Below are positions 1 through 62,927 of a stretch of 64,000 nucleotides of DNA, piece after piece. Under the pieces are notes generated by a model. That model saw nothing but the letters and a program-made list of their open reading frames with translations, did not search any database and was not told where the DNA came from. The DNA is from Isurus oxyrinchus (lineage: Eukaryota): NCBI GenBank assembly GCA_026770705.1, contig JANJGN010000926.1:62001-126000 (forward strand), in the 5' to 3' direction. The translations under genes and the position numbers were made by a program. Every line of letters begins with the position of its first letter. Position 1 is the first letter of the stretch.

Positions 1-253
1 CAATAGAGAGAAACATTGGACAGGGAGTCCAACAGCACAATGATCCATTCTCACCAATGTTCCACGCTAAGGAGAAAGTTCCGATTGTCCACTCTTAGAG
101 TGTTTACAATGAAAACATTCATTCCACATTGAATCCCAGTGGATGGGTCAATATTACAGCAAATGTTGCAGTGATATGAAGTTTGATTGTTCAGCCAGAG
201 TGAGAGATTGAAAGCGGAGAGTCAGTGATGATTTCTTTCTGTGTGTTCTCTAG

Positions 254-393
254 ACAGTGGAGGAGAGATTCTGCACGTGATCCTGATCCTGGGAATACGA
301 GCTGTGATATTCCTTGTGGCTGTGGTTATCACTATCACTGGAGTCTGTGTCTGGGAGAGACAAACAGTGAAAGGAAGTCGACAGACTGTTTGA
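254..393 (+). CDS. Terminal TM/cytoplasmic exon of a putative activating-type Ig-superfamily receptor (rest of gene lies left of the window)
   Basis: Pyrimidine-rich acceptor (tttctttctgtgtgttctctag) at 251-253. Phase-1 reading gives xSGGEILHVILILGIRAVIFLVAVVITITGVCVWERQTVKGSRQTV*: a hydrophobic TM with an internal Arg and a ~12-aa tail with no Tyr. AATAAA at 777-782. Confidence 0.7.
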
Positions 394-4199: not shown

Positions 4200-5270
4200 A
4201 TTCTCTCTTGTTGAAGCTGGTCATTGCCTGGCACTTGTGTGGCATGAATGTTACTTATCACCTGTCAGCCCAAGCCTGGATGTTGTCCAGGTCTTGCTGC
4301 ATTTGGACATAACTTGCTTCAGTATCTGAGGAGCCGTGAATGATGCTGAACATTGTGCAAACATCAGCAAACATCCCCACTTCTGACCTTATGATGGAAG
4401 GAAGGTCATTGATGAAGCAGCTGAAGATGGTTGGGCCTAGGACACTACCCTGAGTAACTCCTGCAGTGATGTCCTGGAACTGAGATGATTGACCCCCAAT
4501 AATCACAACCATTTTCCTTTGTGCTGGGTATGACTCCAAGCAGCGGAGAGTTTTCCCCCGATTCCCATTGACTCCAGTTTTGCTCGGGCTCCTTGATTTG
4601 CCACACTCAGTCAAATGCTGCCTTGATGTCAAGGACAGTCACTCTCACCTCTGGAGTTCAGCTCATTTGTGCATGTTTGAACCAAGGCTGTAATGAGGGC
4701 AGGAGCTGAATGATCCTGGTGGAACACAAACTGAGCGTCAGTGAGCAGGTTCTTGCTAAGCAGGTGCTGCTTGAAAGCGCTGTTGATGACCCCTTCCATC
4801 ACTTTAGTAATGATCAAGAATAGACTGCTGGGTAATTGGCTGGGTTGGATTTGTCCTGCTTTTTGTGTACAGGACGTATCCCATAGCCGGGTAGTTGCCA
4901 GTGTTGCAGCTGTACTAGAAAATTCCAGAAAAGCTTGGCTAGGGGCGCAGCAAGTTCTGGAGCACAAGTCTTCAGTACTATTGCCAGAATATTGTCAGGG
5001 CCTGGAGCATTTACAATATCCAGTGCCTTCAGCCCTTTCTTGATGTCACGTGGAATTAATCGAATTGGCTAAAGATTGGCATCTGTGATGCTGGGGACCT
5101 CCGGAGGAGGCCGAGATGGATCACCCACTCAGCACTTCTGGCTGAAGGTTGTTGCGCATGCTTCAGTCTTGTCTTTTGCACCGATGTGCTGGGCTCCTCC
5201 ATCATTGAGGATGGGGATATTTGTGGAGCCTCCTCCTCCAGTGAGTTGTTTAATTGTCCACGACTGGATG
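4200..5270 (-). mobile_element. CR1-clade (HER1-like) LINE RT fragment
   Basis: RT motifs GVTQGSVLGPTIFSCFINDLPS and MFAD, with frameshifts. Confidence 0.85.
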
Positions 5271-7565: not shown

Positions 7566-7869
7566 TCACGTGAGGTGAATAGTGTCGATGTATTTAAGGG
7601 GAAGCTGGATAAACACACGAGGGAGAAATGAATAGAAGGATATGGTGATGGGGTGAGATGGAGAAGGGGTGGGCGGAGACTCGTGTGGAGCAGAAACACC
7701 AGCATGGAGCAGATGGGCCGAATGGCTTCTTTCCCTGCTGTAAAACGCAGGTAAAGTTTCAGTTGGAATTAATGAACAGGGCCTGTGTGAAATAGATTGC
7801 TAAGCAATGATAAGGAGGGGAGAGGCTGTGGCATGGTGCAGGATGACCTTGCGTGAATGAGGCCAGGGT

Positions 7870-7980
7870 CTAATATCTACAGCAGAGACCACAAGTCTCA
7901 TTTGATTCTCTCGAATTACAGCAGTTACAGCAGAATCTGCAGAATCTGCCCATTCTCTTCTGGCGCTGCAGCAAGGAGCC
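7870..7980 (-). CDS. HAMP: Hepcidin-like gene exon 3 (furin site and mature 8-Cys peptide)
   Basis: Acceptor ctcctgcttttccag, then GSLLQRQKR|MGRFCRFCCNCCNSRESNETCGLCCRY*. RxKR furin site and the C-CC-CC-C-CC hepcidin cysteine pattern. Confidence 0.92.
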   Translation of the reverse strand, partial: GSLLQRQKRMGRFCRFCCNCCNSRESNETCGLCCRY

Positions 7981-8064
7981 CTGGAAAAGCAGGAGCACAA
8001 TAGGTGAGAACATTCCGGAAAGAAAGAAGGCATCATTTCAATCAGGCGCGTCATTGGAAGGAGG

Positions 8065-8446
8065 ATGGCGCATTTCTATAGCGCCTTTCCCCTCCTCAGG
8101 ATGGCCCAAAGTGTTCCACAGCTGAAGGAAGGACTTTTTCTGAAGTGGGCTCACCGCTGTAATGTAGGAAACGCAGCAGGCAATTCACGCACAGCAAGAT
8201 CCCACAAACAGAAATGTGATAATGGCCCCGATTTTCAGTTTTTTACCAATGTCAGTTGAGGGATAAATGTTTGCCCCAGGAAAGTGGACATAACTCCACC
8301 CATCCAGCCCGCACCACCCCCTCCACACATACCCCCCAACTCCTGACGCACTTCATCTAAATTGTGGCCATGGAATCCTCTATATCCACCTGAGAGGGCA
8401 GATTGGTTGCCCCAGTTTAATGTCTCATCTGAAAGACAGCGCCTTC
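8065..8446 (-). mobile_element. SINE (shark SacSINE/DeuSINE-like) running into the 30-bp array
   Basis: Homologous to 10470-10775 and, in reverse orientation, to 25200-25480. Confidence 0.55.
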
Positions 8447-8780
8447 AACAGTGCAGCACCCCCTCAGTACTGACCCTCCGACTGTGCAGCACTCCCTCAG
8501 TACTGACTCTGACAATGCAGCACATCCTCAGTACTGACCCTCCAACAGTGCAGCACTCCCTCAAGACTGACCCTCTGACAATGCAACACTCCCTCAGTAC
8601 TGACCCTCCGACTGTGCATCCCCCCGCCGGTACTGACCCTTCGACAATGCAACACTCCCTCAAGACTGACCCTCTGACAATGCAGCACTCCCTCAGTACT
8701 AACCCTCTGACAATGCAGCACTCCCTCAGTACTGACCCTCTGACAATGCAGCACACCCTCAATACTGACCCTCCGATAGC
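8447..8780. repeat. 30-bp minisatellite (cagtgcagcactccctcagtactgaccctccga)
   Basis: About 11 tandem units. Confidence 0.95.
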
Positions 8781-10312
8781 TCGGTCATTCCTCAATTACG
8801 CCTGGTGGTCCTTTTAACTCAGAGCTGAGAGTTGCAGAGAATCGAGCAGACACCCTGAACTGACACTTGCAGTGCAAGTACTGGGAGCGCGCTGGTCATT
8901 ATCATGCTGCTGTCTGTGGGATCTTACAGTGCGCCAATGGCTGATTCTTTTCCCACATTACATCAGTGACCTCAAATGAAAGAAAAAAGCACTTGATTGT
9001 CTGCGAAACACTTTGGGACGTCCTGATGTGTTGGAAGGCGCTAGAGAAATGCAAGTCCTCTTTGTCTTTCACTCGATCCTCTAAGGTGTCTGTTGATTAA
9101 CCAGCCTCTCGGTGTATGATGTAGGCCTGGTTATAAACAGTTAGAAGGATCAAATATCAAAAGTGCTTTGGCTGACAGTCAAACCGATTGTGCATTCGGA
9201 GAGATTAGATATGGTCTGCACACAATGACTCCAGTCTCTGGCACTGAATGCCGCCTGGGGTCTCCCTTCCACATAACAATCACAACTTGCATTTACACAG
9301 CGCCTCTGACATTGCAAAATGTCCCAGCCCACATTACCGGAGCGTAAATCAGAGAGAAGTCTAACACTGAGTCACATATGGAGATATTAGGGATAGGTGA
9401 CCAAAAGCTTGGTCAAAGATGTCAGTTTTTAAGGAACGTCTTAAAGGAGAGAGAGAGAGAGAGGCAGAGAGGTTAAGGGAGGGTATTCCGGAGCTCAGGG
9501 CCCCAGGCAGCTGAAGGCACGGCCACCAATGGTGGAGCGATGGGAATCAGGGGGTCCCGGGAGATGCAGTAATGTCAGAGATTTTGGAGGAACATCGGGA
9601 CCGGAGGAGGTGTTCTCCTGCTCCATATCTCTCTCTCTCTTCCTCTCATCCACTCCTCCTCTCCCTGTCTCTCTCTCTCCTACTCTTCCTCTCAATTGCC
9701 CTCTCTCCCAATCTTTCTCTCCTCTCTCCCTTTTCCTGTCTCTCTCCCTCTCTCTCCCCTGTCTCCTTCTCCCACTCTGTATCTCTCCCTCTCTCTCACA
9801 CTATTTTTGTACCTTTCGCTCACTCTGTAACTCTCCCTTTCCTGTTAATTTCTCTCTCTTGGACAATCTCTCTTCCCTTTTCACTTTCCCTCACTCTGCA
9901 TCTCTTCTTTAATTTCTCCCTCTGTCACTCTCTCCCACCGATGTTCTTTCCCTTTCACCCCTCCCCGTCCCACTCTCTGTCTCTCTCTTCCAATCCCTCC
10001 CTCCCCCATTCCATCCCTCTCTCCGACTCTCGACTCCCAGCCTCTCTTTAACCCACTCCCAGGCTGGATCAGTCTCCCTCTCACTATTCCCGGCGTGGGT
10101 TACATTTAAAATTCCTGTGGGGATATGTTCACTTCCTTGGAATTGCCTCTTCCCAGCTTTGCAAAAAAAGGGGGGGGGGGGCTCGATTTCAAACATGCCT
10201 CCTGAGTATAACCGAGACAGACTGCCACTGAAATCAGCTTGAAATCAGAAAACTTTCTGTGGAAGAAACGAGCAGGGAGAAACCTTAAAATAAGGAATGA
10301 ATTTCCACCTAC

Positions 10313-10369
10313 CGTGTCCGGGGAATCCACAGATTTCTCAATCGTCGAAGAACCTAAAGCAGTGTCAAC
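10313..10369 (-). CDS. HAMP: Hepcidin-like gene exon 2 (propeptide)
   Basis: Acceptor ttctttttgcag, donor gtaggt. 57 nt, open only in phase 0 (VDTALGSSTIEKSVDSPDT), in frame with exon 3. Size and phase resemble vertebrate HAMP exon 2. Confidence 0.75.
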
Positions 10370-10469
10370 CTGCAAAAAGAAAGAATTTATCAGGGAGAAA
10401 GTGAGAGGAGGATTGAGGGAGAGGGAGAGAGAGAGAGAGAGGTACAGGAGAGAGAGGGGGAGGAGGACA

Positions 10470-11220
10470 GACTTGCATTTCTCTAACGCCTTTCACCACA
10501 TCCCAAAGCATTTCACAGCCACTGAAGGATGTTTTTGAAGTGCACTCACACTGTAGGAAATGTGGCAGCTGATTTGTGCACAGCAAGATCCCACAAATAG
10601 CAATGTGATCATGGCCTAGATCATCTGTTTTTGGTGATGTTGGGTGAGGGATAAATATTGGTCCCAGGACACCGGGGAGAACACCCCCTGCTCTTCCTCC
10701 AAATAGTGGCTGTGGGATCTTTCACACCCGCCCGAGAGGGCAGACGTGGGACTCAGTTTAATGTCTCATTCAACATTGTTGTGCTCCCTCAGTACTAACC
10801 CTTTGACACTGCAGCACTCCCTCAGTACTAACCCTTCGATAGTGCTGCGCTCCCTCAGTACTGTCCCTCCGTCAGTGCAGCTCTATTTCAGTACTAACCC
10901 TTCGACACAGCAGCACTCGCTCAGTACTGACCTCCGACAGTATAGCACTCCCTCAGTACTGTCCCTCCAATAGTGCAACACTTCCACTCTACTTACCCTG
11001 TAACAATGCAGCACTTCCTCAGTACTGACCCTCCGTCAGTGCAGCGCTCCCTCAGTACTGACCCTCCGACAGTGCAACACTTCCACAGTACTGACCCTGT
11101 AACAATGCAGCACTTCCTCAGTACTGACCTCCGACAGTATAGCACTCACTCAGTACTGTCCCTCCAATAGTGCAACACTTCCACACTACTGACCCTCTGA
11201 CAGTGCAGCACTCCCTCAGC
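10470..11220. repeat. SINE plus 30-bp minisatellite array
   Basis: Same SINE-then-array arrangement as 8065-8780. Confidence 0.85.
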
Positions 11221-11296
11221 ACGGAGTGTTGACCGACGTTATGGGACTGAATTCCCTGGAGTGAGACTCAGACCAGAGATTTAGGTAGGGTTGTTC

Positions 11297-12730
11297 CGGC
11301 TGGAGGAGGTTACAGAGATAGGGAGGGTTGTAGAGGCTGGAGGAGATAACAGAGATAGGGAGGGTTCTAGACGCTGCAGGAGGTTACAGAGATAGGGAGG
11401 GTTGTAGGGGCTGTAGGAGGTTACAGAGATAGGGAGGTGAGTAGGGGCTGTAGGAGGTTAAAGAGATGGGGGGGTTGTGGGGGCTGGAGGAGGTTACAGA
11501 GGTAGGGAGGGTTGTAGAGGCTGGAGGAGGTTACCAAAATAGATACTGTTGTAGGGGCCACAGTAGGTTACAGAGATAGGGAGAGTTATAGTGTGGAGAG
11601 GACGTTATAGAGTTCATGAGCATTGTAGGGGCTGGAGGAGGTTACAGTGATTCTGAGGGTCGTGGGGCCTGGAGGAGGTTACAGAGATAGGGAGGGTTGT
11701 AGGGTCTGGAGGAGGTTACAGAGATAGGGAGGGTTGTAGGGTCTGGAGCAGGTTACAGAGATAGGGAGGGTTGTAGGGTCTAGAGGAGGTTACAGTGATC
11801 ATGAGGGTTGTGGGGCCTGGGGGAGGTTACAGAGATAGGTAGGGTTGTAGGTGCTGGAGGAGGTTACAGAGATAGGGAGGGTTGTAGGATCTGGAGGAGG
11901 TTACAGTGATCGTGAGGGTTGTGGGGCCTGGGGGAGGTTACAGAGATAGGGAGTGTTGTGGGGACTGTAGGAGGTTACATAGATAGGGAGGGTTGTCGGG
12001 TCTGGAGGAGGTTACAGAGATAGGGAGGGTTATAGGGACTGGAGGAGGTTACAGAGATAGGGAGGGTTGTAGAGACTGTAGGATGTTACAGAGATAGGGA
12101 TTGTTGTAGGGGCTGGAGGATGTTACAGAGATAGGGAGGGTTGTAGGGGCTGGAGGAGGTTACAGAGATAGGGAGGGTTGTAGGGGCTGGAGGAGGTTAC
12201 AGAGATAGGGAGGGTTGTACGGGCTGGAGGAGGTTACAGAGATAGGGAGGGTTGTAGGGGCTGGAGGAAGTTACAGAGATAGGGAGGGTTGTAGGGGCTG
12301 GAGGAGGTTACAGAGATAGGGAGGGGTGTAGGGGCTGGAGGAGGTTACAGAGATAGGGAGGGTTGTAAGGCCTGGTGGAGGTTACAGAGATAGGGAGGGT
12401 TGTAGGGGCTGGAGGAGTTTACAGAGATAGGGAGGGGTGTAGGGGCTGGAGGAGGTTACAGAGATAGGGAGGGTTGTAGGGCCTGGTGGAGGTTACAGAG
12501 ATAGCGAGGGTTGTAGGGGCTGGAGGAGTTTACAGAGATAGGGAGGGTTGTACGGGCTGGAGGAGGTTACAGAGATAGGGAGGGTTGTAGGGGCTGGAGG
12601 AGGTTACAGAGATAGCGAGGGTTGTAGGGGCTGGAGGAGTTTACAGAGATAGGGAGGGTTGTACGGGCTGGAGGAGGTTACAGAGATAGGGAGGGTTGTA
12701 CGGGCTGGAGGAGGTTACAGAGATAGGGAG
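11297..12730. repeat. 32-bp minisatellite (ggctggaggaggttacagagatagggagggttgtag), G-rich on +
   Basis: About 45 visible tandem units. Confidence 0.95.
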
Positions 12731-12932
12731 TCGCTGAGGAGGGATTGAAAACAAGAATGAGAATTTCAGGGGAAACGACAGAAGGAAATGATGTTAAATT
12801 CATAGAGGGCGACAATATTAAAGGCACGAACATAATAATATCAAACTGCGGAAGAGACCAGTCTATCTGGGTGGTAGACGTAGAGTCATGTGCAAGAAAC
12901 ACCTCACCCAGAGGGACATCTCTTAGCTTAAC

Positions 12933-13024
12933 CTCGACAAGGAGAAGAAGTGACTCAGCTGCAGGGAGAGCAGCAAAGTCAGAGTGAACAAGACAAGTCG
13001 CCATTTCATCTGGGAGCTTCCCAT
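12933..13024 (-). CDS. HAMP: Hepcidin-like gene exon 1 (signal peptide); splice/phase defect as assembled
   Basis: (MGSSQ)MKWRLVLFTLTLLLSLQ... is signal-peptide-like. The GT donor at 12932 is in phase 2, incompatible with phase-0 exon 2. An in-phase CAG|CTGAGT at 12958 looks like a G>C-mutated donor. Confidence 0.6.
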
Positions 13025-13095
13025 CTCTGCCTGTCTCTTCTGATCTTCTGGCTCTGCTTTGATGCTTTGGTTTGTAACTAGAGGAGCTTCCTGCT

Positions 13096-13310
13096 CTTAT
13101 ACCTGAAACACTTGAAGGGGACAGCCGCGGGTGGGTAGCTGTGTGGTATCACACCCATTTCTGGATATTGCAGTGTCGATGTTCCCTGTCCCACTGGCCT
13201 GGGACCAGCAGTAAGGTCACTGGGACATTGAATGTCTGGCGCCGAGAACTATCAGTCCCTCCGCAACGCCCTTCACCTTGTGCAAATATGTGTTCATATT
13301 GATGCAACAC
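13096..13310 (-). promoter_or_regulatory. Putative HAMP promoter: TATA-like box, BMP-responsive GGCGCC with adjacent SMAD element, C/EBP-type sites
   Basis: TATAAG (minus) at 13096-13101; GTCTGGCGCC at 13234-13243; TTGTGCAA at 13278-13285; TGATGCAA at 13300-13307. Confidence 0.55.
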
Positions 13311-15384: not shown

Positions 15385-17250
15385 TCCCTATATCTGTAAC
15401 CTCCTCTCTCTCTCCCTTTCCTCCAGCCCCTACAACCCTCCCTTAGGCAGCCTCCACCTGCCTCTACAATCCTCCCCATCTCTGTAACCACCTTCAACCC
15501 CTACACCCCTCCCTATATCTGTAACCACCTCCAACCCCCACAACCCTCCCCATCTCTGTAACCACCTTCAACCCCTACACCCCTCCCTATACCTGTAACC
15601 TCCTCCAGCCCCTGTAACCCTCCCTATCTCTGTAACCTCCTCCAGCCCCTACACCACTCCCTATCTCTGTAACCTCCTCCAACCCCTACAACCCTCCCTA
15701 TCTCTGTAACCTCCTCCAACCCCTACAACCCTCACTATCTCTGTAACCTCCTCCAGCCCCTACAACCCTCACTATCTCTGTAACCTCCTCCAACCCCTAC
15801 AACCATCCCTATCTCATTAACCTCCTCCAACCCCTAAAACCCTCACTATCTCTGTAACCTCCTCCAACCCCTACAACCCTCACTATCTCTGTAACCTCCT
15901 CCAACCCCTACAACCATCCCTATCTCATTATCCTCCTCCAACCCCTACAACCATCCCTATCTCATTAACCTCCTCCAACCCCTACAACCCTCCCTATCTC
16001 TGTAACCTCCTCCAACCCCTACAACCCTCCCTATCTCTGTAACCTCCTCCAGCCCCTACAACAATCCCTATCTCTGTAACCTCCTCCAGCCCCTACAACC
16101 CTCCCTATCTCTGTAACCTCCTCCAGCCCCTACAACAATCCCTATCTCTGTAACATCCTACAGTCTCTACAACCCTCCCTATCTCTGTAACCTCCTCCAG
16201 TCCCTATAACCCTCCCTATCTCTGTAACCTCCTCCAGCCCCTACAACAATCCCTATCTCTGTAACCTCCTCCATCCTCTACAGTCCTCCCCATCTCTGTA
16301 ACCTCCTCCAACCCTTCCTATATATGTAACCTCCTCCACAAGCCCATACAATCCTCTCTATCTCTGTAACAACCTCCAGCCCCACAACACCCTTATACCT
16401 GTAACCTCCTAGCCACTGTAACACTCCCTATCTCTCAAGCCTCCACCAGCCTTGACAATGCTCCCCATCTCTGTAACTTCCTCCAACCCCCAGTACCCTC
16501 CCTATTTCTGTAATCTGTTCCAGTCCCTACAACCCTCCCTATCTCTACAACCTGCTCCACCCCCTGCAACTCGCCCTATCTCTGTGTCATCCTCCTGCCC
16601 CTACAACCCTCCCTATTTCTGTAACCTCCTCCAGCCCCTACAACCCTCCCTATCTCTGTGTCCTCCTCCAGCCCCTACAACCTTCCCTATCTCTGTAACC
16701 TCCTCCAGCCCCTACAACCTTCCCTATCTCTGTAACCTCCTCCAGCCCCTACAACCCTCCCTATCTCTGTAACCTCCTCCAGTCCCTACAATCCTCCCCA
16801 TCTCTGTAACCACCTTCAACCCCTACACCCCTCCCTATATCTGTAACCACCTCCAACCCCCACAACCCTTCCCATCTCTGTAACCACCTTCAACCCCTAC
16901 ACCCCTCCCTATCTCTGTAACCTCCTCCAACCCCTACAACCCTCCCTATCTCTGTAACCTCCTCCAACCCCTACAACCCTCACTATCTCTGTAACCTCCT
17001 CCAACCCCTACAACCCTCACTATCTCTGTAACCTCCTCCAACCCCTACAACCCTCACTATCTCTGTAACCTCCTCCAACCCCTACAACAATCCCTATCTC
17101 TGTAACCTCCTCCAGCCCCTACAACAGTCCCAATCTCTGTAACCTCCACCAGCCCCTACAACCCTCCCTATCTCTGTAACCTCCTCCAGCCCGTACAACC
17201 CTCCCTATCTCTGTAACCTCCTCCAGTCCCTACAACCCTCCCTATCTCTT
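15385..17250. repeat. 32-bp minisatellite, C-rich on + (inverted relative to 11297-12730)
   Basis: Tandem units of cctacaaccctccctatctctgtaacctcctccagcc. Confidence 0.95.
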
Positions 17251-18225: not shown

Positions 18226-19319
18226 CTCTCATATTCCCCCAGCAACTCAGCAACTCCTCCAGTGAAACATTTCAGAGCAGCTGAGCTTGGTTTTCTGGAA
18301 CCAGTCTCGGCCCAGAAGACTAGGGCCCTCACCTGTCGCTATGATCACTGGAAGCTGGGCTGTCTGCTGCCTGTAGGACACAGGTACTGGGATGAGGTCC
18401 TTTCCCTGTATGGATTCTCCAGTGTGTGTCTTCAGCTGATCCATTGTTGGCTCTAAATTCAGCGTCTGGGTTCCTTCATTTAGCTGTTTAAATGTGGGCT
18501 CTTCCACCACTGTGTCTGAGGCTCCCGTATCTGCCCCATTACTAGTGGCTGCCCATTCACTTGGGTTGTGATGGTTATAGGTTCAGTTTTTACCACTGTG
18601 ACATTGGACAGGGAATAGACATCGGTATCAGCAGCTTCAGGCTCTGTGATATTATTCCCTTCCATCATGTTGGTGCACTGCCTGATGGGCTGTCTCGATT
18701 TCACCCTGCATTGCTTTATTACCCGCCCCTTTCTTGTGGCAGTGATGGCATTCTGCCCCCTTGAACCTGCAGGTGTCCGGTACGTGCTCAATGCCCCCCA
18801 CATCGAGAACAGGCCAACTTCGGAGTTGCTGCTGAAATACTCCCACGAAGCCTTTTAGTTTCTGGAGCAGCAGAGACTGTCTCTCGCTTGGCGGCTGTCT
18901 CTCTCTCTCTCTCTCTCTCTCCAGTTTGAGCCTCACGCCCGGTGGTTGGTTCCTGTCCCAGCTGAGGACTGGCGCCATGTTGTACATCCTGTAAATCCCG
19001 CCAGTCTCTCCTAGCACTTTCCATGCATGGCGCTATTTTCATGGTGCGCTTCAAATCGATGTCGGCTTCTGCGAGTAAACGGCTCTGAATGGCGTTGGGG
19101 TGAAAGACACAAACCAATCGGCCCCGCAACATGTCATTGAGTGTGTCTCCGAGGTCCCAGTGCTCAGTCACCTGCTTCCACTTCACTGTATAGGTTGCGA
19201 TGGACTCTCCCTGGGCCCTTACTCTGGAGTTAAACTTAAACCTCTGCATTATTACCCACGGCTTCAGCTGAAAATACATCTTCATGAGGACGACTAATTG
19301 GTGAAAAGATTTAGAATTG
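18226..19319 (-). mobile_element. Ty3/Gypsy LTR-retrotransposon gag-protease fragment
   Basis: Gag-like QRFKFNSRVRAQGESIATY...LNDMLRGRLVC; zinc-knuckle remnants (CSRCGGH, CHHCHKKG); protease-like DTGAS and LLGRDW. Frameshifted. Confidence 0.8.
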
Positions 19320-19612
19320 GGTGTAATACACGTCACTGTCTTCAGCTCTGAGACTGTCAATCCTCACCGAACAATTCTTCCCTTCCAAGTCGCCGATTAT
19401 TTTAGCACGTCCCACGAATGTGGCCACCCCATAATTGGGATCTTTGGTGTATGTGATGGTATATTTCCATCTATACCAATATTTATACCAAGCTCCGTGC
19501 AGTGCTGTGTAAGAGTGGGAAGGAAAGTCAAAGCTACACGGAATAACCACACAAGAGCTGCTGATGGCCCTCCGAGGCAGCGCCTTCATAGACCATCCCT
19601 CTGACGTCACTC
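19320..19612 (-). pseudogene. Truncated divergent Siglec-like V-set exon
   Basis: Acceptor cctttcag, then GVTSEGWSMK...SSCVVIPCSFDFP...GAWYK...GRAKIIGDLEGKNCSVRIDSLRAEDSDVYY. Siglec V Cys pattern, cut just before the F-strand Arg by the Gypsy junction. Confidence 0.8.
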
Positions 19613-19644
19613 CTGAAAGGCAACAAGGGAAGAGACAGGACATC

Positions 19645-20115: not shown

Positions 20116-20334
20116 TCCTGTGAAGCAATAAGGATGTTTTACTGCATTAAATGGCACCTTTAAATGGCACCTTTCAGGGAATTAAACAGCCCCAGGGAAT
20201 TATCTAATGTCAAGACAAGGAAGGAGAGATTGAGAAGGGACATCGCAAACCGATTCACCAAACACGGCAAAAATTCATTGTTCCCTCACTCCCTGTGCTG
20301 GGTGTCCAGCTTTTTCTCTCAGTGAGTTTAGTCC

Positions 20335-23300
20335 TCACAATATCTATCTATCACACTCTTCTGCTCTATCTCTCTCTCTCACACACACACATTCTCTCTC
20401 TAACACTCACAATCTCTCTCTATCACACTCTTCTGCTCTATCTCTCTCTCTCACACACACACATTCTCTCTCTAACACTCACAATATCTATCTATCACAC
20501 TATTCTGCTCTCTCTCTCTCACACACACATTCTCTCTCTAACACTCACAATCTCTATCTATTGCACTCTTCTGCTCTATCTCTCTCTCTCACACACACAT
20601 TCTCTCTCTAACACTCACAATCTCTCTCTATCACACTCTTCTGCTCTATCTCTCTCTCACACACACATTCTCTCTCTAACACACAATCTCTATCACACTC
20701 TTCTGCTCTATCTCTCTCTCTCACACACACACATTCTCTCTCTAACACTCACAATCTCTCTCTATCACACTCTTCTGCTCTATCTCTCTCTCTCACACAC
20801 ACACATTCTCTCTCTAACACTCAATCTCTCTCGATCACACTCTTCTGCTCTATCTCTCTCTCTCACACACACACATTCTCTCTCTGACAAACACAATCTC
20901 TCTCTATCACACTCTTCTGCTCTATCTCTCTCTCTCACACACACACATTCTCTCTCTAACACTCACAATCTCTCTCTATCACACTCCTGTGCTCTATCTC
21001 TCTCTCTCTCTCTCACACACATTCTCTAACAATCACAATCTCTCTATCGCACTCTTCTGCTCTCTCTCTCTCTCTCTCACACACACACCTTCTCTCTCTA
21101 ACAAACACAATCTCTCTCTATCGCACTCTACTGCTCTCTCTCTCTCTCTCACAAACACAATCTCTCTCTAACATTCACAATCTCTCTCTATCGCACTCTT
21201 CTGCTCTATCTCTCTCTCTCACACACACACATTCTCTCTCTAACACTCACAATCTCTCTCTATCTCACTCTACTGCTCTCTCTCTCTGTCTCACAAACAC
21301 AATCTCTCTCTATCGCACTCTTCTGCTCTCTCTCTCTCTCACAAACACACATTCTCTCTCTAACAATCACAATCTCTCTCTATCACACTCCTGTGCTCTA
21401 TCTCTCTCTCTATCACACACACATTCTCTCTCTAACACTCACAATCTCTCTCTATCACACTCCTCTGCTCTATCTCTCTCTCTCTCACACACACACATTC
21501 TCTCTCTAACACTCACAATCTCTCTCTATCACACTCTTCTGCTCTATCTCTCTCACACACACACATTCTCTCTCTAACACTCACAATCTCTCTCTATCTC
21601 ACTCTACTGCTCTGTCTCTCTCTCTCACAAACACAATCTCTCTCTATCGCACTCTTCTGCTCTCTCTCTCTCACAAACACACATTCTCTCTCTAACAATC
21701 ACAATCTCTCTCTATCACACTCTTCTGCTCTATCTCTCTCACACACACACATTCTCTCTCTAACACTCACAATCTCTCTCTATCGCACTCTTCTGCTCTA
21801 TCTCTCTCTCACACACACACATTCTCTCTCTAACACTCACAATCTCTCTCTATCACACTCTTCTGCTCTATCTCTCTCTCACACACACACATTCTCTCTC
21901 TAACACTCACAATCTCTCTCTATCGCACTCTTCTGCTCTATCTCTCTCTCTCACAAACACACATTCTCTCTCTAACACTCACAATCTCTCTCTATCGCAC
22001 TCTTCTGCTCTATCTCTCTCTCACACACACACATTCTCTCTCTAACACTCACAATCTCTCTCTATCACACTCTTCTGCTCTATCTCTCTCTCTCTCACAC
22101 ACACACATTCTCTCTCTAACACTCACAATCTCTCTCTATCACACTCCTGTGCTCTATCTCTCTCTCTCTCTCTCACACACATTCTCTAACAATCACAATC
22201 TCTCTATCGCACTCTTCTGCTCTCTCTCTCTCTCTCTCACACACACACCTTCTCTCTCTAACAAACACAATCTCTCTCTATCGCACTCTACTGCTCTCTC
22301 TCTCTCTCTCACAAACACAATCTCTCTCTAACATTCACAATCTCTCTCTATCGCACTCTTCTGCTCTATCTCTCTCTCTCACACACACACATTCTCTCTC
22401 TAACACTCACAATCTCTCTCTATCTCACTCTACTGCTCTCTCTCTCTGTCTCACAAACACAATCTCTCTCTATCGCACTCTTCTGCTCTCTCTCTCTCTC
22501 ACAAACACACATTCTCTCTCTAACAATCACAATCTCTCTCTATCACACTCCTGTGCTCTATCTCTCTCTCTATCACACACACATTCTCTCTCTAACACTC
22601 ACAATCTCTCTCTATCACACTCCTCTGCTCTATCTCTCTCTCTCTCACACACACACATTCTCTCTCTAACACTCACAATCTCTCTCTATCACACTCTTCT
22701 GCTCTATCTCTCTCACACACACACATTCTCTCTCTAACACTCACAATCTCTCTCTATCTCACTCTACTGCTCTGTCTCTCTCTCTCACAAACACAATCTC
22801 TCTCTATCGCACTCTTCTGCTCTCTCTCTCTCACAAACACACATTCTCTCTCTAACAATCACAATCTCTCTCTATCACACTCTTCTGCTCTATCTCTCTC
22901 ACACACACACATTCTCTCTCTAACACTCACAATCTCTCTCTATCGCACTCTTCTGCTCTATCTCTCTCTCACACACACACATTCTCTCTCTAACACTCAC
23001 AATCTCTCTCTATCACACTCTTCTGCTCTATCTCTCTCTCACACACACACATTCTCTCTCTAACACTCACAATCTCTCTCTATCGCACTCTTCTGCTCTA
23101 TCTCTCTCTCTCACAAACACACATTCTCTCTCTAACACTCACAATCTCTCTCTATCGCACTCTTCTGCTCTATCTCTCTCTCACACACACACATTCTCTC
23201 TCTAACACTCACAATCTCTCTCTATCACACTCTTCTGCTCTATCTCTCTCTCTCTCACACACACACATTCTCTCTCTAACACTCACAATCTCTCTCTATC

Positions 23301-24625
23301 GCACTCTTCTGCTCTATCTCTCTCTCTCACACACACATTCTCTCTCTAACACTCACAATCTCTCTCTATCACACTCTTCTGCTCTATCTCTCTCTCTATC
23401 ACACACATTCTCTCTCTAAACCTCACAGTCTCTCTCTATCACACTCTTCTGCTCTATCTCTCTCTCTCTCACACACACACACACATTCTCTCTCTAACAC
23501 TCACAATCTCTATCACACTCTTCTGCTCTATCTCTCTCTCTCTCACACACACACATTCTCTCTCTAACACTCACAATCTCTCTCTATCACACTCTTCTGC
23601 TCTATCTCTCTCTCTCTCACACACACACATTCTCTCTCTAACACTCACAATCTCTCTCTATCGCACTCTTCTGCTCTATCTCTCTCTCTCTCACACACAC
23701 ACATTCTCTGTCTAACACTCACAATCTCTCTCTATCACACTCCTGTGCTCTATCTCTCTCTCTATCACACACACATTCTCTCTCTAACACTCACAATCTC
23801 TCTCTATCACACTCCTCTGCTCTATCACTCACACACACACACACATTCTCTCTCTAACACTCACAATCTCTATCACACTCTTCTGCTCTATCTCTCTCTC
23901 TCACACACACACATTCTCTCTCTAACACTCACAATCTCTCTCTATCACACTCTTCTGCTCTATCTCTTTCTCTCTCTCGCACACATTCTCTCTCTAACAC
24001 TCACAATCTCTATCACACTCTTCTGCTCTATCTCTCTCTCTCTCTCACACGCACACATTCTCTCTCTAACATTCACAATCTCTCTCTATCGCACTCTTCT
24101 GCTCTATCTCTCTCTCTCACACACACACATTCTCTCTCTAACACTCACAATCTCTCTCTATCACACTCTTCTGCTCTCTCTCTCTCTCTCACACACACAT
24201 TCTCTCTGTCTCCCTCCCTCAAATACATTCTCTCTCTCTCTCAGACACAAACACTCTCTCACACACTCACACACTTTCCTTAAAACTAACACAATCTCTC
24301 TTTCTGTCAAGCACACACTCTCTCTTTTACACACACACTCTCTCGCTCAGACACACACATTCTCTCTCTCTCAAACATTTAACATTTCTCTTCATCTCGA
24401 TCTTCTGCTGTCTCTCTCTTTCTCTCCCTCGCACACACACACACTCTCTGTCACAAACACACTCTCTCTCCCATACACTCTCTCTCACACACTCTCACAT
24501 GCACACTCTCTCCCTCATATACAAACACTCTCCCTCACACATGCACAGACTCTCTCTATCTCTTTTTCTCTCTCACACAGTCTCTCTGTCTCTCTCTGTC
24601 TCTCAGACACTCTCTCTCTCTCTGA
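20335..24625. repeat. Large CT/CA compound minisatellite (~60-bp unit) with a 1160-bp higher-order duplication
   Basis: Unit tctctctatcacactcttctgctctatctctctctcacacacacattctctctctaacactcacaa; identical ORFs at 20989 and 22149. Confidence 0.95.
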
Positions 24626-51300: not shown

Positions 51301-52032
51301 AAGAATCACTTCATTGGCTGTGAATCAGTTTAGGATCGTCCTGAGGTGGTAAAAGGCGCTATGGAAATGTGAGACTTACTTTTGTATTTTGAAAGCAGGT
51401 TTTCAAGGATGAGATGGGAACTGAGAGGTAACAACAATCAGCAGCAACTTTCCTATTTTCAAACTTGGTGGGGAATGTGTCACTGAGCTGAATACACTTT
51501 CACTCCCAGACCCTTGAATTGCCAACACCGGGGTGTGGGTGATGGAGCAGTCCACAGCTCATGGAACCCTGGCTCATCATTCTCTCAGAGATCTGGGTCA
51601 CTGATCCCATTGCTCTCTGTGGGAGCTTCCTGTGTACAAACTCACTGCCACGTTAGACAGTGACTATACTTCAAGAATTTCTTCATTGTCTGTGAAGTGA
51701 TTTGGTACATGCTGAGGTGATGAAAGACGCTATAGGAATGCAAGTCTTTACTTTGTCGATTTGTCAGACTTTTAAACAGGATTAGAGAGACTGATGGGAG
51801 TGGATAACCTGATAGCATTGATGGACACAGTCAATACATTTAATCATTGATATTAAAGTGATTATTAGAGGTTGCTTTAAGACTGAACTGGAAGCAATCA
51901 CCAGGTTATTGAGAATCAGACAGTGTGTAAAAATAAGCTGTGTTTTGTGTTAATATGTAAACGTCACAGTTTGTGTTATTTCCCATTGAGTGTTGAATGT
52001 GAATTGTTGAGTAATTATAACACAGCACTTAC

Positions 52033-52401
52033 CAGAAATGTGAAGCTGGGTTTCAGGGTAATAGTTATGGCTCGGACCATTGTCAAATTCTATTCTGAAA
52101 TAATAAGGTCCTGCATCTTCCCGTCTGATGTTGTTTATAATCAGGGAACAGTCGCCATCTTTCAGGTCTCCAGACAGCCGGGTCCGATGGCGGAACCGTG
52201 GTAACTCGTGACTGTGATCCTTGGAGTGAAAGGCAATGGGAGCCCAGGGAATCTGTTTCTCATTATTAAACCAGACTCCACCTCGCGGTTGGTTTTCCAA
52301 ATGTGATGGATAACTGTAATGACATGGAATCTGTACACACGAGCTTTCATGAGCTGTCACCTCTCGTGGAGTGTCACCTTTCCACTCTTGTGACAGTCCA
52401 A
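52033..52401 (-). CDS. Siglec-like A V-set exon 1 (essential Arg present)
   Basis: 369 nt, phase 1-1: VGLSQEWKGDTP...SSCVQIPC...GDCSL...DAGPYYFRIEF. Confidence 0.92.
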
Positions 52402-53281
52402 CTGGGGAGAGAAATATCAATATTTAACTCTGGATGTTTTTTCGATCCACTAGACTTGATATGTACTCCCTCCATCACTAGGGCACAGTGGCTGCAGTGT
52501 GGACCATTTACAGGACACACAAGGAAATCCCCAAGGTTTCACAATGGATGGAAGAGAATCCTGGACACAGGAGTGGACTAGTTGATTCTACATTGGCTCA
52601 TGGTCCTCAGGACCCTGTTTAGTTTTTTCAAATTACTCATTCATATCATTTATTACCCATCCCATGTCTATCAGAGGTATTTAAGATTCAACCACATTGC
52701 TGTGGGTTTGGAGTGACATGTCCTCCAGACTGGGTAAGGGTGGCAGATTTCCTTCCCTATAGGTGATCAGTGAACCAGGCTTTTTAATCCCATTCATCTG
52801 CCGTGATGGGATTCACATCCAGGGCCCCAGAGCATCACCCTGGGCCTCTGGAATACTAGCCCAGTGACAATACCTCTCTGCTACCGCTTCCCCTTAGTGA
52901 AGCCAGTCTTCCACCCAACACAGTGTCTACAAGACCCACCAATTGAGATCCATTCAGTGCTGATTTACAAGACAGGACAATGGATTAGGAGCCCTCAGAA
53001 CTCCCCCCATTATCACCGTCATGAATCACTAATTAGCCTAACATTCCTGTCTGCTCTTCAACACAGCTGATTGGCTAATCTGATTCAATCTGATTGGTGT
53101 TCATTCCCTCTTCAATGTTTAAGGAATCACCAATCACTCGGCCTCTAGTTATTCTCCTGCCCACAAGAGGGAACATTCTCTCTCTACCCAGTCAATCAAA
53201 ACCTTTCATCTAATCCTAGTGGTGCTTGAGTATATAGTCGGGAATCCAGGGCAATGGAGCCTCAGGAGAAGAGATGGAAAC

Positions 53282-53756
53282 CCTGTGAGGTGGAACGTCA
53301 CTGAGGCCATCCGAGTTGAAGCGACTTTTGGAGAGAATTCCAAGGCAGGATGTACGAAGTTGAAGACTGGAATCCCTCATGAGAGAAACAGAGTTTCAGT
53401 GAGATTGGTTGACTGACAGTGTTCACTGATGTCCGGGTGGGTTGTTGTGAAATCCATGGGCTCTGTCTTGGTTGCGTTTACAATTTAATGAGTAATGTGG
53501 CTGTGAGACCACAGTTTGCCTGTTAATTCACATGAGCTCATATTAATCCAGAATGTTAGGGTATAAGGTGGATATTGTAAATTATTTTATCTTTCTGAGC
53601 TGGTGCAGTAAAGTTTATTTTTGTTTGTTTAAAAGCCATGGAAACTCTGTTTCTCTCATGAGGGATTCCAATCTTCAACTTCGTACATCCTGCCTTGGAA
53701 TTCTCTCCAAAAGTCGCTTCAACTCGGATGGCCTCAGTGACGTTCCACCTCACAGG
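53282..53756. repeat. 116-bp near-perfect inverted repeat (MITE-like or foldback)
   Basis: 53282-53397 versus 53641-53756, one mismatch seen, 243-bp spacer. Confidence 0.9.
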
Positions 53757-53875
53757 AATCTTGTAGCTTTATTCTCTTCGCAGGCGTCTTAAATCTCAAA
53801 CCTCGTCTCCTTGAAACAAAACATTACTTGTTCCTAACTGTAAATTACCAAAAAAAATTGGTTTCTGTTCCTCCA

Positions 53876-55116
53876 TCAGCAACTCTTCAGAATCCTGCTG
53901 AAGTCACGGATATTTCAGAAGGACAGGGAACAAGAGGTTTCTGGTATCAGCGTTTTGTGTGGGGCCCAGTTCAGTTTGAACAAATAAACAACACCATCTT
54001 TGAAAGTCATGAACCCACCACAGCGGCACCTCCGACACATGCAGAGCTCAGGCGAGAGGCGCTTTGTTAGTGTGTTTCACAGGGTCTGCTGGAGTAGGGT
54101 CAGTGCTGAGAGGGTCTGCTCAAGGATCATAACAATCTGGACTTGCACCTTCCAAGTAATAAGATTTTGTAAATGTATTCATTCATGGGATGTGGGCGTC
54201 GCTGCCAAGGCCAGCATTTGCTGCCCATCTCTAATGTCCCGTGACATAATCTCTGTAGCAGAGTAGAGACAATCATGATCACTCAGGATATTTGACATCT
54301 ATCCACATGAGCAGCTTTACCTTCCTTCTCTCTTTCAGTTATCTTACTCCCTTATTGAAGTTTCTAGCATGGTGAGAACTGGATGGTTTGCTCGGACATT
54401 TCAGAGGAACCACGTTGCTATGAGTCTGGAGTCACATGTAGGCCAGACCAGATATAGACGGCAGATTTCCTTCCCTAAAGGCCATTAGTGAACCAGATGG
54501 GTGTGTATGACAATCGATGATAGTTTCATGGTCTCCATTACTGAGACTAACTCCCATTAGTGTAAACAGAGTGAACAGTTTTCCATTGATCCCACCTTTC
54601 CCGTTCTCTCCGGTATTTTACACACTATTGCTCGATAATTTGATTCTGCCAAGGACCCCTTGGAAAATCATGGACCCCAATGGAATAAGGAATCTCTTTG
54701 GATCCTCATTGTCTGAGGAATCTCTTTGGATCCTCATTGTCTGAGGAATCTCTTTGGATCCTCATTGTCTGAGGAATCTCTTTGGATTCTCATTGTCTAA
54801 GGGATTATTTCTGATCCAAACCCCATATTGTTGTATTGTTGATTCCGATGCAGCATTGTAGACTGACTTGTCCCCAAGCTCAGCACTGACCCTACTCCAG
54901 CAGACCCTGTGAAACACACTAACAAAGCGCCTCTAGCCTGAGCTCTGCATGTGTCGCAGGTGCCGCTGTGTTGGGTTCATGACTTTCAAAGGCGCTGTTG
55001 TCATTTTTTTTGTTCAAACTGAACTGGGCCCCACATGAAATGCTGATACCAGAAACCTCTTGTTCCCTGTCCTTCTGAAACATCTGTGATTCAGCAGGAT
55101 TCTGAAGATTTGCTGA
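53876..55116. repeat. ~235-bp diverged inverted repeat enclosing a 28-bp x4 tandem (54688-54800)
   Basis: 53876-54110 versus 54879-55116 (reverse complement). Confidence 0.85.
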
Positions 55117-55989
55117 CAAGGGTCTTAAATTGTCTGATTGTTGAATGAAACAACACAGGAGGAGCTCATTTGACTCATCGTGCATGTGCTGGCTCTTTCC
55201 CAATTCCTCTCCAGCACCTTTCACACAGCCCTGCAAATTTCCCTTCAAGTATTTATCCAGTTCCCCTTCTGAAAGTTCCTGTTGAATCTGCTTCCACCGG
55301 CCTTTCAGGCAGTGAGTCAATGGTCTCTCTCTGAGCTGCAAAGTGCTCAGATTCTGTGAAATTTAAACTCTGCTGCAGATCAGACACAATCATGATAACT
55401 CAGAATATTTGACAGTTTTACACACGGACAGCTTTACCTTCCTTCTCTCTTTCAGTTATCTTGCTCCCTTATTGAAGTATCTAGCATGGTGAGAATGGAC
55501 AGGAAGTGTGACACTGAACAGCCTGTCTATTCTAGGAGCTGCTGTGTTGTCTTCATGGGAAATTTTGAATAAAGGCAGCAAAGGATACAAATTTCAGACC
55601 ATTGCTATCGGAGACCTCACATTAGGATAGGCTTCACCCCCAAGGTTTTATCCCTGCTTCTCTACTCAACCCATCAATCCCCATCGCTCACTGACCAACG
55701 TCTGACAGCACCTGAATTTTAAGATTCTGCTCTCGCTGCTACAACCCTGCCTATCCCTGTACACTCCTCCAGCCCCTACAACCCTCCAAGGCCTCTGCTC
55801 TCCTCCAATTCTGCTGTGAGACAGGGAGTCAGTGTATATCAGTGAGCACAGGGGTGATGGGTGAATGGGACTTGGTGTGAGTTTGTACACTGGGTCACTG
55901 CTAAATCAGTTCCCAATTAGAGGTCAATAAGAATGATCTTTTACAAAGACTATTAACCATAAATCTGTCCGAGCTGACAATGGTATTAC

Positions 55990-56029
55990 CTTGGAGAAGT
56001 GACAGGAGGAAGTATGATTTACCGATCAT
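55990..56029 (-). CDS. Siglec-like A signal-peptide exon (coding part; exon 55990-56071)
   Basis: Acceptor ctctttcag; MIGKSYFLLSLLQ+G|gtaata. Phase-1 join to V1 gives MIGKSYFLLSLLQVGLS-QEW. Confidence 0.85.
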
Positions 56030-56462
56030 TGTCCACTCCCAGATATTTCCTCAGCTTATAACTCTGAAGTTCTGAAAGAGAAAGGAGTTAATGAGACTTC
56101 ACCTCTTGTCCGAATGCTCTCGAGAGATCAGAACTGCTTTTAGACAATATCTTCACAGACTAATTTGATTCTTTGTGGGATGATAGGTGCTCTGCAGAGA
56201 GGTACAAGTCTTTCAGAAAGAAAAACAATGAAGGACTTGCATTTCTATAGCACCTTTCACCACCTCAGGATGTCCCCAAGCTCATGTCCCTTGAGCTAGA
56301 AAGATGTTCTGTACAACAGACTTGAGCCTCACACCCAGATCTCAATAATCAGTAGAAATCTTTCAAAGGCATCAATCATTGGAATCTGTCTTTATAAAGT
56401 CACAACATCAACAAAGGACGGTGTTGGTGGTGGAAGTGAATTCCAATCGTTCCGTTACTTAC

Positions 56463-56550
56463 CCAGGACCTGTCCGACTGCTCGCCTGGGGAGGAACTGC
56501 CCACACGCTCTGCTTGGGCTGAATGACCTCTTCCTGTGCTGCTCCCTCTG
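56463..56550 (-). other. Candidate non-coding first exon of Siglec-like A
   Basis: Strong donor TGG|GTAAGT at 56462; GC-richer segment with an ETS-like caggaag motif. Confidence 0.4.
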
Positions 56551-61283: not shown

Positions 61284-61532
61284 TCAGTTTCGCTTGAATC
61301 TGATCTGTGCTGAATCTGTCTCCTCTTCCCTGTGGACAGACCCATCACCACTGGGCACCCTGAAGACTTGGGGATTGGCATAGAGAAAGTCCGCGGGATT
61401 GTCAGGGTTCCCATGTCCAACATCGCCTCCCACTGGACCTTCAGAGAGACCCCGGGGAGCTGGGGTCTCCCCCTCGCTAGTTGTGTCTCTGGTTGTGTTC
61501 CGGGGCTCAGTAATCAGCACGTTCTGTTTACC
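61284..61532 (-). CDS. Paralogous Siglec-like terminal cytoplasmic exon B with degraded Tyr motifs
   Basis: 249 nt, intact frame: ...ADFLYANPQVF...EETDSAQIRFKRN* versus LFYANI and TEYAQI in gene A. Confidence 0.75.
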   Translation of the reverse strand, partial: GKQNVLITEPRNTTRDTTSEGETPAPRGLSEGPVGGDVGHGNPDNPADFLYANPQVFRVPSGDGSVHREEETDSAQIRFKRN

Positions 61533-61953
61533 CTACAGAGAAATGGAAACAGAAGACATCCTCACATCATTTACTGGCACTGATAGGGTTAAATTATTGT
61601 GCAGCGTCGTTAGTGTCAGTCGTGGCTCAGTGGGTTTAACCCTCTCTCATGTCATCTGAAAGAAACCACCTATGGCAGTGCAGTGCTCCCTCAGTACTGA
61701 CCCTCTGATAGTGCAGCACTTCCTCAATGCTGACCCTCCGACAGTGAAGCACTCTCTCAGTACTGACCCTCCGACAGTGCGGCACTCCCTCAGTACTGAC
61801 CCTCTGTCAGTCTCGCACTCAATCGGTAATGGCTCTGGTGAGTGACGGCTTGGATTCTGCACTCAGGTGCCTGGTGTGAGGCTCAATAACATGAATCTTG
61901 TAATCAGAGAGAGGATGAGAGAGAGGGATAGAGATGAAGGGACAGAGACAGAG

Positions 61954-62710
61954 TGTTATGAATCTTTTAATGTATGTAATGTAATTGGAAATGGTCTATT
62001 TAAAAAGAGGTTTAGTCTGTGGGTGTGTTTGTGTGTGTTTCAATTGGATTAAAGCCAGCCAGTCTGGGTACTTTGATGTATAGTAGTTTTGAGATGTAAA
62101 CAATGAGGTAAAGTGGTAATTTGCATTTTTAAATAGAGCATTCAATGTCTGGGGGTGAAATCTTAAACCAATCAACATTTATATTAAGAATAAAATTGAG
62201 ACAATGAAAGGGGATTTATTGTTAGAAGAGGTGGAGTTCAAAGGTCCTGATGATACAATGAGAATTTACATTCAAATAGAAGTGCTGGGTATAACTTGAG
62301 CAGTTTTGTGTGTGCAGAGCAGAGGCTTGTAACATCAAAGCAGCTGTAAGCCTTCACCTGTCTGCAAAGGAACCAAAGTGAAAGGAACCTCATTTGGAAT
62401 TTGTGAGGTGAAAATGCTTTGCTGGAATCTGCTTAAATTCTATGGGTTATCTTAGAGGAGATTAGTTTGGGAATTTGTTAAAAAGTTATGATAATACTAG
62501 TTTGTAGCCAAGCGCATATGTTTAACTAGTGCAAATTAATAAATGCTTCATGTAGTATGATATAAAACCATCCCGAGAACTGGTGGTCTTATTCCTGAAT
62601 TTAGAGCTGCATCTCAAACATTCCACTGGGAAATATAGGTTATGACAGTTGTTTAAAGTTTCCCTCTGGGATTTTAAACAACAGCCTTTACCAGTTGCTG
62701 TGTCATAACA
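61954..62710. mobile_element. Solo-LTR-like insertion
   Basis: TGTTATGA...TCATAACA termini; absent from the paralogous intron of gene A; related sequence at ~56600-57250. Confidence 0.65.
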
Positions 62711-62845
62711 GAGAGACAGCATGATACTGAACCATTGCTGACTCCACAGGTACAAATCAGTGGGTAACTGGGCTGGGAATCTGGGACACGTGTTGTCTAC
62801 ACACTGAGGTTGAAGCTTTGGAGTGAGTGTAAACAGCTCCTGTAC

Positions 62846-62927
62846 CTGGTGCTTCACAGAGAGTGGACTGGGGGTCAATGCAATGTCACTGGTCCCTGAA
62901 ACTCTCTCCTCCATCGCTGTCTTTCTC
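62846..62927 (-). CDS. Paralogous juxtamembrane cytoplasmic exon B
   Basis: 82 nt, RKTAMEERVSGTSDIALTPSPLSVKHQ, splice sites intact. Confidence 0.75.

Follow-up and report, generated by a model that had tools for sequence, protein, structure and literature searches.

A candidate hepcidin gene with a defective or non-canonical first splice donor inside a Siglec cluster of the lamniform shark Isurus oxyrinchus

Hepcidin is a small liver peptide that vertebrates use both against microbes and for iron control. Whether it originated as an antimicrobial peptide or as a hormone acting on ferroportin is an open question, and cartilaginous fish are the outgroup able to answer it. Here we describe a locus in a 64,000-nucleotide stretch of the Isurus oxyrinchus genome (GenBank assembly GCA_026770705.1, contig JANJGN010000926.1, positions 62,001 to 126,000; below, the window, with positions counted from its first letter). 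On its minus strand, between positions 13024 and 7870, three candidate exons lie in an order that resembles a hepcidin gene. As the best explanation of the whole we propose, with slightly better than even confidence, that the locus is a true hepcidin (HAMP) gene from a lamniform shark, with a base lesion at 12931 in its first splice donor.

Hepcidin precursors are cut by signal peptidase and by a furin-like enzyme, and their C-terminal part is a four-disulfide hairpin (PMC3978493, PMC3325200). In fish, the precursors are 81–96 residues long (PMC3978493) and the coding exon 1 measures 87 nt (PMC3325200). Hepcidin's N-terminus is essential to ferroportin binding (PMC6958404); in the sea bass, Hamp1, which starts with QSHLSL-, lowers ferroportin, and Hamp2 does not (PMC5665920). 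Like the gene described here, the hepcidin detected in nurse shark plasma is a shark member of the family, and according to that paper it has no orthologue among the predicted proteins of the whale shark (PMC9207270). The literature that we searched, mostly outside subscription journals, contained no characterisation of a shark hepcidin beyond this naming in nurse shark plasma. In a review, the section on fish antimicrobial peptides lists none for sharks (PMC6795676), and the paper on the white shark heart transcriptome has hepcidin only in a reference (PMC3832898). Our analysis suggests that the orthologue is unannotated; the gene described here is a divergent, probably unannotated member of a known family.

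Evidence for the family comes from exon 3 (7980–7870). It is preceded by a strong CAG acceptor and encodes nine propeptide residues ending in RQKR, a 27-residue peptide and a TAG stop, exactly as an earlier reading made from the letters alone (the sequence-only reading) had claimed. That reading had also stated that the open reading frame (ORF) track offers only an out-of-frame version of this exon, and indeed 7800–8075 is the sole minus-strand stop-to-stop ORF of at least 80 aa there, with no match in Pfam. In the correct frame, RQKR (7965–7954) corresponds to the RX(K/R)R convertase site of hepcidins, and the eight cysteines of the peptide follow the C-CC-CC-C-CC frame of the family. Across all six frames, this cysteine pattern is found a single time in the window, and none of 300 windows simulated with a third-order Markov model contains it. 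The peptide has a computed net charge of +2, a pI of 8.2 and a reduced mass of 3160 Da. MGRF stands ahead of Cys1, with no histidine and without the six-residue QSHLSL-like segment of the HAMP1 type. The loop is 8 residues long and holds two glutamates and an N-E-T sequon.

Searched alone, the exon-3 frame matches the Pfam family Hepcidin (PF06446) with E 6.3e-6 and 26.8–26.9 bits over profile positions 24–52 of 53. It is the only one of the 297 non-repeat ORFs of at least 40 aa in the window to do so, and none of 29 further ORFs matches the family. Exon 1 alone and exon 2 alone gave nothing significant in Pfam. The top match in the Protein Data Bank (PDB) is the fish hepcidin 1S6W, with 8 of 8 cysteines aligned (E 0.12); human hepcidin comes fifth of five matches (E 3.2). 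The assignment to the hepcidin family made in the sequence-only reading is supported by the Pfam match and the cysteine alignment with 1S6W, as well as by the splice sites, promoter motifs and Siglec neighbourhood described below. The search for other HAMP copies that it had advised was run on the 64-kb window, where tBLASTn found no second hepcidin.

Exon 2, a candidate propeptide exon, was claimed as a 57-nt phase-0 exon and stands as such (10369–10313). Scored with a simple matrix built from consensus frequencies, which is used for all splice sites here, its acceptor reaches 11.3 bits (99.7th percentile of 5562 AG sites) and its donor 7.7 bits (98.6th percentile of 4133 GT sites). It is the sole minus-strand phase 0-0 exon of 30–120 nt in the window with an acceptor of at least 9 and a donor of at least 6 bits; the plus strand has two. 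An exon as good was present in 13 of 1000 simulated 4.86-kb segments, an optimistic figure, as the thresholds were taken post hoc from exon 2 itself. On the plus strand, at 54339–54371 and 55456–55488, two 33-nt exon-like units with identical scores and strong splice sites lie within duplicated sequence.

The introns were said to be swollen to about 2.3–2.6 kb by repeats, and both their size (2332 and 2562 nt) and their minisatellites and multi-copy element bear this out; we keep the name 'SINE' given to the element as an assumption. Repeats mask 1297 of the 2332 bases of intron 2 (56%) and 2334 of the 2562 bases of intron 1 (91%), and the interspersed element is present in many copies in the window. 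Neither ARAGORN (tRNA-like sequences) nor Rfam gave any match.

For exon 1, we relied on hydropathy and charge pattern. On these, the N-terminal signal peptide typical of the family is present: the frame has a basic n-region and a 12-residue hydrophobic core, with a best 10-residue hydropathy of 2.84. The frame from ATG 13009 is the only one of 377 unmasked minus-strand ATGs to pass a signal-like filter, which was set post hoc. Upstream, a TATA-like box and a GGCGCC motif are found. GGCGCC is the sequence of the bone morphogenetic protein (BMP) response elements of human hepcidin (PMC3879105). It occurs twice in the 64 kb, and only the copy at 13243 has an adjacent AGAC/GTCT; its distance upstream of the presumed start is about 170 nt, compared with -84/-79 in the human gene. 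Two long arrays of a 37-bp minisatellite in opposite orientation (11282–12730 and 15419–17249) flank the promoter and exon 1, and could favour inversion or deletion of the 2.7-kb segment between them.

As written, the exons do not join normally. The sequence-only reading had placed a signal-peptide exon at the head of the three-exon layout of vertebrate HAMP. A signal-like frame does run from 13024/13009, and the exons do follow in order on one strand; what failed is a usable in-phase GT donor before the TAA at 12925, and an open three-exon precursor. In the unchanged sequence, the signal frame cannot be joined to exon 2 at 10369 and on to exon 3 in an open frame (0 such joins), and the open precursor by canonical GT-AG splicing that a functional hepcidin gene should give is missing. 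The strongest GT donor of the region, at 12907 (6.8 bits), has the right phase and lies past the stop. The GT at 12932 scores 3.1 bits and is in phase 2, and the only open direct join from the signal frame uses a donor of -2.0 bits and an acceptor of -0.2 bits. With exon 2 kept, no rescue exon in intron 1 has sites above 4 bits, and one, with a -2.0-bit first donor, is among the best 25 of 58 relaxed models. The predicted copy, as written, is either broken or uses a non-canonical splice site. The lack of a canonical in-phase donor in exon 1 is itself a reason for annotation to skip the gene. The claim that it is easily missed is also consistent with two empty homologue searches and with the whale shark gap reported in PMC9207270.

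To locate the lesion, we tried all one-base changes (substitutions, insertions and deletions) in the 140 nt that begin at 13009. The top open model changes the T at 12931 into the G that a donor requires. This substitution yields a phase-0 donor of 8.7 bits and a precursor of 86 residues (81 from the second ATG), which is within the 81–96 of fish. The TAA then falls into the intron, and the coding exon 1, at 78–93 nt, comes near the 87 nt of fish. All eight Siglec donors in the window score 7.2–10.7 bits (a range biased upward, since the best GT near each mapped exon end was taken), and the position of the 8.7-bit score inside this range supports the model. Near-donors of this kind occupy 207 of 61812 positions, so that about 0.04 would be expected among the 12 in-phase positions. 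In the best explanation, T at 12931 would be either a recent mutation or an assembly error. The eight cysteines, RXKR, the three other splice sites, the TATA box and GGCGCC are intact, which suggests that any loss is recent. Two ways around the stop were considered and rejected: read-through, as TAA leaks less than the other stops, and a fresh start at ATG 12919, which would yield no signal peptide.

The same gene might carry a different lesion. Exon 1 would then end at 12908, before GTGAGG, and TAA 12925 would be a nonsense change, or one base would have been deleted before the donors at 12932/12902; this copy would be a pseudogene of recent origin or a null allele, in a cluster that evolves by birth and death, or else the assembly would have slipped. 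We regard this as unlikely, though deserving attention. Second in our scan came seven TAA-removing substitutions, which open a precursor of 89/94 residues with a 6.8-bit donor, followed by frameshift models of at most 4.8 bits, among them many one-base insertions that give open precursors of 81–96 residues with donors of 3.1–4.8 bits. The window, a draft-type assembly, contains more broken parts (a truncated Siglec V exon, a frameshift near 46595 in a Siglec Ig exon and 12 N gaps). However, all these donors score below that of the 12931 model, exon 1 would have 102–117 nt against 87 nt in fish, no N gap lies within 13 kb of 12931, and a near-perfect in-phase donor right after the signal peptide would be left to chance. 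It is improbable, in our view, that the gene is intact and that a natural non-canonical TT donor at 12931 is used in a fraction of transcripts, throttling hepcidin output. The rest of the gene is indeed intact, TT is the second-ranking non-canonical donor and is found mainly in highly expressed genes, and the site shares the exon-end pattern G|TTAAG with FANCC c.165+1G>T and with the natural TT donors of FBXO9 and ETV1 (PMC6280755). Unlike those three, it has no GT at +5/+6, where GC stands instead. According to the same source, accurate TT splicing needed this second GT, variants lacking it were spliced inaccurately or went to cryptic sites, and most GT>TT changes disrupt splicing; here, a GT donor 24 nt downstream would compete as well. 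Still less probable, to the point of being very doubtful, is an open frame reached by other splicing or another start: ATG 13004, in another frame, spliced from 12932 or 12902; a join from donor 12932 to a middle exon at 9439–9376 or 10256–10133; or the intronic ATG 8013, which shares the frame of exon 3. It would be allowed by 58 rescue models that add or swap an exon, by several direct joins and by a 47-residue ORF from 8013. Against this, the frame from 13004 lacks a signal peptide (its hydropathy is 1.9 and it contains acidic residues), the best rescue sums to 19.1 bits over three sites against 25.8–27.7 with exon 2 and skips the best exon, one rescue exon lies inside a repeat, and the leader from 8013 is a translated polypyrimidine tract without promoter evidence. 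That the resemblance arose by chance and there is no gene at all seems to us negligible. A Pfam score slightly under the cut-off and database searches without a homologue would fit it, but the cysteine pattern is absent from every simulated window, and furin site, acceptor, middle exon, signal frame, TATA box and synteny all come in the correct order and on the correct strand.

Several observations count against the explanation that we prefer, that of a hepcidin gene with a lesion at 12931. With 26.8 bits, the Pfam score lies 0.2 bit below the curated gathering score of 27, so that the Hepcidin HMM check put forward for the exon-3 peptide returned a match just short of its cut-off, and the 1S6W match (E 0.12) is not significant alone. 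No homology speaks for exon 2 by itself. We found neither an exact STAT site upstream of the gene nor a poly(A) signal (AATAAA/ATTAAA) within 1.3 kb downstream of the TAG. Both the end of exon 1 and the lesion are inferred from sequence. Homologue searches with the 55-aa exon-3 frame, of which 19 aa derive from the intron, returned nothing among proteins of 30–97 residues and three candidates, none of them scoring, among those of 98–2000 residues, in a database that covers 16 shark and ray genera; no hepcidin at all was returned, not even the teleost ones with the same core. Since teleost peptides sharing the core were missed, the empty result says little about distant relatives and is only moderately telling for near-identical ones. 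The ESM Atlas gave no usable match for the peptide. A single-sequence AlphaFold model of the peptide is helical rather than a beta-hairpin (pTM 0.40, models in disagreement), and Foldseek found no fold match for it. As a prediction at that depth, the model is uninformative: it neither supports nor refutes a four-disulfide hairpin. A phmmer search with the 36-mer of exon 3 against 1.84 billion representatives (50%-cluster library) gave one match (unnamed, E 1.7e-4), which is not what a hepcidin precursor would give: it falls near the N-terminus of a 105-residue protein and in three stretches.

The comparison with known hepcidins is divided. With the teleost HAMP2 type (hybrid striped bass 1S6W, sea bass Hamp2), the shark peptide shares the CRFCCNCC core and the C-terminal CG-CCR-aromatic motif, and the gene, as there, has no QSHL N-terminus, an RXKR site and three exons. 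The loop between Cys5 and Cys6 differs: 8 residues, acidic and with the sequon, against 5 in 1S6W. The introns, at 2.3–2.6 kb, contrast with 87–191 nt in fish (PMC3325200). Membership of the HAMP2 clade, which is reported only from acanthopterygians (PMC3978493, PMC3325200, PMC6240063), fails for a lamniform host, so that the likeness would reflect convergence or an older state and not HAMP2 orthology. HAMP1 and human hepcidin-25 (1M4F, 2KEF) have in common with the shark gene the 8-Cys frame, a precursor of about 84 residues, the GGCGCC promoter element and the Siglec neighbourhood. They differ from it in that the shark N-terminal segment is shorter and without histidine, the match is at E 3.2, the exact STAT site was not found and the first donor is non-canonical as written. 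From the start of exon 3 to the cleavage site there are nine residues, which we take to be the human number too.

We somewhat favour a mainly acute-phase antimicrobial or immune role for the peptide, like that of teleost HAMP2, with a weak function or none as an iron hormone. This preference comes from the MGRF N-terminus, which lacks the His-containing HAMP1 segment that contacts ferroportin; the human HAMP1 motif in this comparison is one that we presume. It is possible, if only tentatively so, that the peptide is instead a shark HAMP1-type iron hormone under BMP/SMAD control, which binds ferroportin through a lineage-specific N-terminus (Phe before Cys1, Arg-Phe after). The GGCGCC element points toward iron control, and the low charge suits a hormone: a net charge of +2, two glutamates and a sequon are modest for an antimicrobial peptide. 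There is a single hepcidin copy in the 64 kb, set among Siglec genes as mammalian HAMP presumably is. The restriction of HAMP2 to acanthopterygian lineages (PMC3978493, PMC3325200, PMC6240063) favours the hormone as well. On the other hand, there are 4 residues before Cys1, none of them His, against 6 in HAMP1 peptides (QSHLSL, PMC5665920), and the CRFCCNCC core is identical to that of sea bass Hamp2 and 1S6W.

Under the explanation with a lesion at 12931, the TATA promoter and the BMP-response-like element would drive a three-exon transcript, probably in the liver. Exons of 31, 19 and 36 codons would give the 86-residue precursor (81 from the second ATG), from which the 27-residue peptide with four predicted disulfides could be freed by two cuts, first by signal peptidase and afterwards by a furin-type convertase at RQKR. 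With T at 12931, splicing would mostly shift to the GT one base upstream, with a frameshift, or to 12907, with an in-frame stop, and the copy as written would give little or no secreted peptide. A stop 72 nt before the last junction would invite nonsense-mediated decay. If the T is real, a lamniform shark would carry an immune/iron gene in a loss-of-function allele, or else a TT intron that works, which is rare; if the assembly is wrong at this base, the outcome would be a useful but ordinary annotation fix. The locus offers a concrete 27-residue peptide, with an N-terminus unlike that of HAMP1, for tests on shark ferroportin and on bacteria. A bolder combination, which we consider a long shot, is that lamniform hepcidin is HAMP2-like (antimicrobial, without the ferroportin-binding N-terminus), has a glycosylated extended loop and is limited in output by a conserved natural TT donor. 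If true, the antimicrobial-only type would have arisen twice or be the older state, some 400 million years apart from teleost HAMP2, and a conserved functional TT intron would be added outside mammals.

By sequence comparison, the hepcidin gene lies inside a tandem Siglec cluster, with Siglec sequence on both sides. Human HAMP is, we assume, beside MAG and CD22; the searched literature gave no paper stating HAMP–Siglec synteny. Further Siglec-like Ig exons lie at 61–63 kb (gene end 61293–62947, minus strand), and the gene at 3–390 has the opposite orientation. All 93 homologues returned for the V-set exon come from sharks and rays (16 genera), the best being a Carcharodon carcharias protein with 98% identity over 120 residues, which points to the white shark or a near lamniform as the source of the window. 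Such a cluster is the place to seek hepcidin in other shark genomes. The features of the locus and its neighbours are given in Table 1.

Table 1. Features of the candidate hepcidin locus and of the flanking Siglec sequences in the window.
Feature	Position	Strand	Basis or remarks
Siglec-like gene on the downstream side: end of an Ig domain, and transmembrane exon	3..390	+	93% over 46 aa to white shark P0021
Predicted mature peptide, 27 aa, 8 Cys, stop TAG 7872-7870	7870..7953	-	Pfam, PDB match, sequence
Exon 3, propeptide end with RQKR furin-type site (7965-7954)	7954..7980	-	sequence; RX(K/R)R motif as in PMC3325200
Intron 2, 2332 nt, GT-AG	7981..10312	-	interspersed repeats 8070-8445, 8894-9070, 9282-9463; 33-bp minisatellite 8448-8776; CT-rich tract
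Exon 2 (57 nt, phase 0-0), coding for an acidic propeptide stretch rich in Ser, Thr and Pro	10313..10369	-	splice-site scores
Intron 1, 2562 nt	10370..12931	-	37-bp minisatellite 11282-12730; 33-bp minisatellite 10784-11219; interspersed repeat 10469-10790
GTGAGG, the next canonical donor in phase (6.8 bits), past the TAA	12902..12907	-	splice score
TAA in signal-peptide frame; intronic in the preferred model, premature stop with the 12907 donor	12923..12925	-	sequence
TTAAGC following the exon end AGG, a donor that is defective or non-canonical	12926..12931	-	differs by one base from an in-phase donor scoring 8.7 bits
Coding part of exon 1 in the preferred model: 31 codons counted from ATG 13024, 26 from in-frame ATG 13009	12932..13024	-	hydropathy, donor scan
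TATA-like box TATAAGA, 77 nt upstream of ATG 13024, no ATG between	13095..13101	-	sequence
GGCGCC BMP/SMAD-response-like element, then AGAC	13234..13243	-	motif only
C/EBP-like site, weak (25 such matches on the minus strand)	13278..13285	-	motif
Truncated Siglec V-set exon relic, upstream side	19323..19634	-	sequence comparison
Multi-Ig Siglec gene(s), leader to cytoplasmic tail	35056..56550	-	sequence comparison

Within the multi-Ig Siglec region, we observed two near-identical V-set exons (52402–52034 and 50359–50000), a C2-set exon, transmembrane and cytoplasmic exons, and at least seven tandem-duplicated Ig exons that are 84–97% alike in DNA. Several of these tandem copies are separated by N gaps, and their number may be mis-assembled. 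One of the tandem Ig exons (46434–46711, minus strand) adjoins an N gap and, compared with white shark proteins, is shifted in frame by one base near 46595; it may be a pseudo-exon or an assembly error. The V-set relic ends where the sialic-acid-binding strand would start, and is followed at about 18250–19300 by a decayed gag/aspartyl-protease-like remnant (Pfam E 0.007).

The remaining observations concern repeats. An inverted duplication of 979 bp at 42222–44533, 97% identical, has GIY-YIG endonuclease matches on both strands and resembles what we take to be a Penelope-type retroelement. At 27518–31135, three tandem copies of an AT-rich unit of 0.8–1.1 kb (86–97% identical) have N gaps between them, and GC falls to 31%. 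Decayed LINE reverse-transcriptase fragments (Pfam RVT_1) are present at 4261–4638 and 33429–33926, and a 3.9-kb array of a 70/142-bp CT/CA-rich unit at 20334–24207 shows extreme GC skew.

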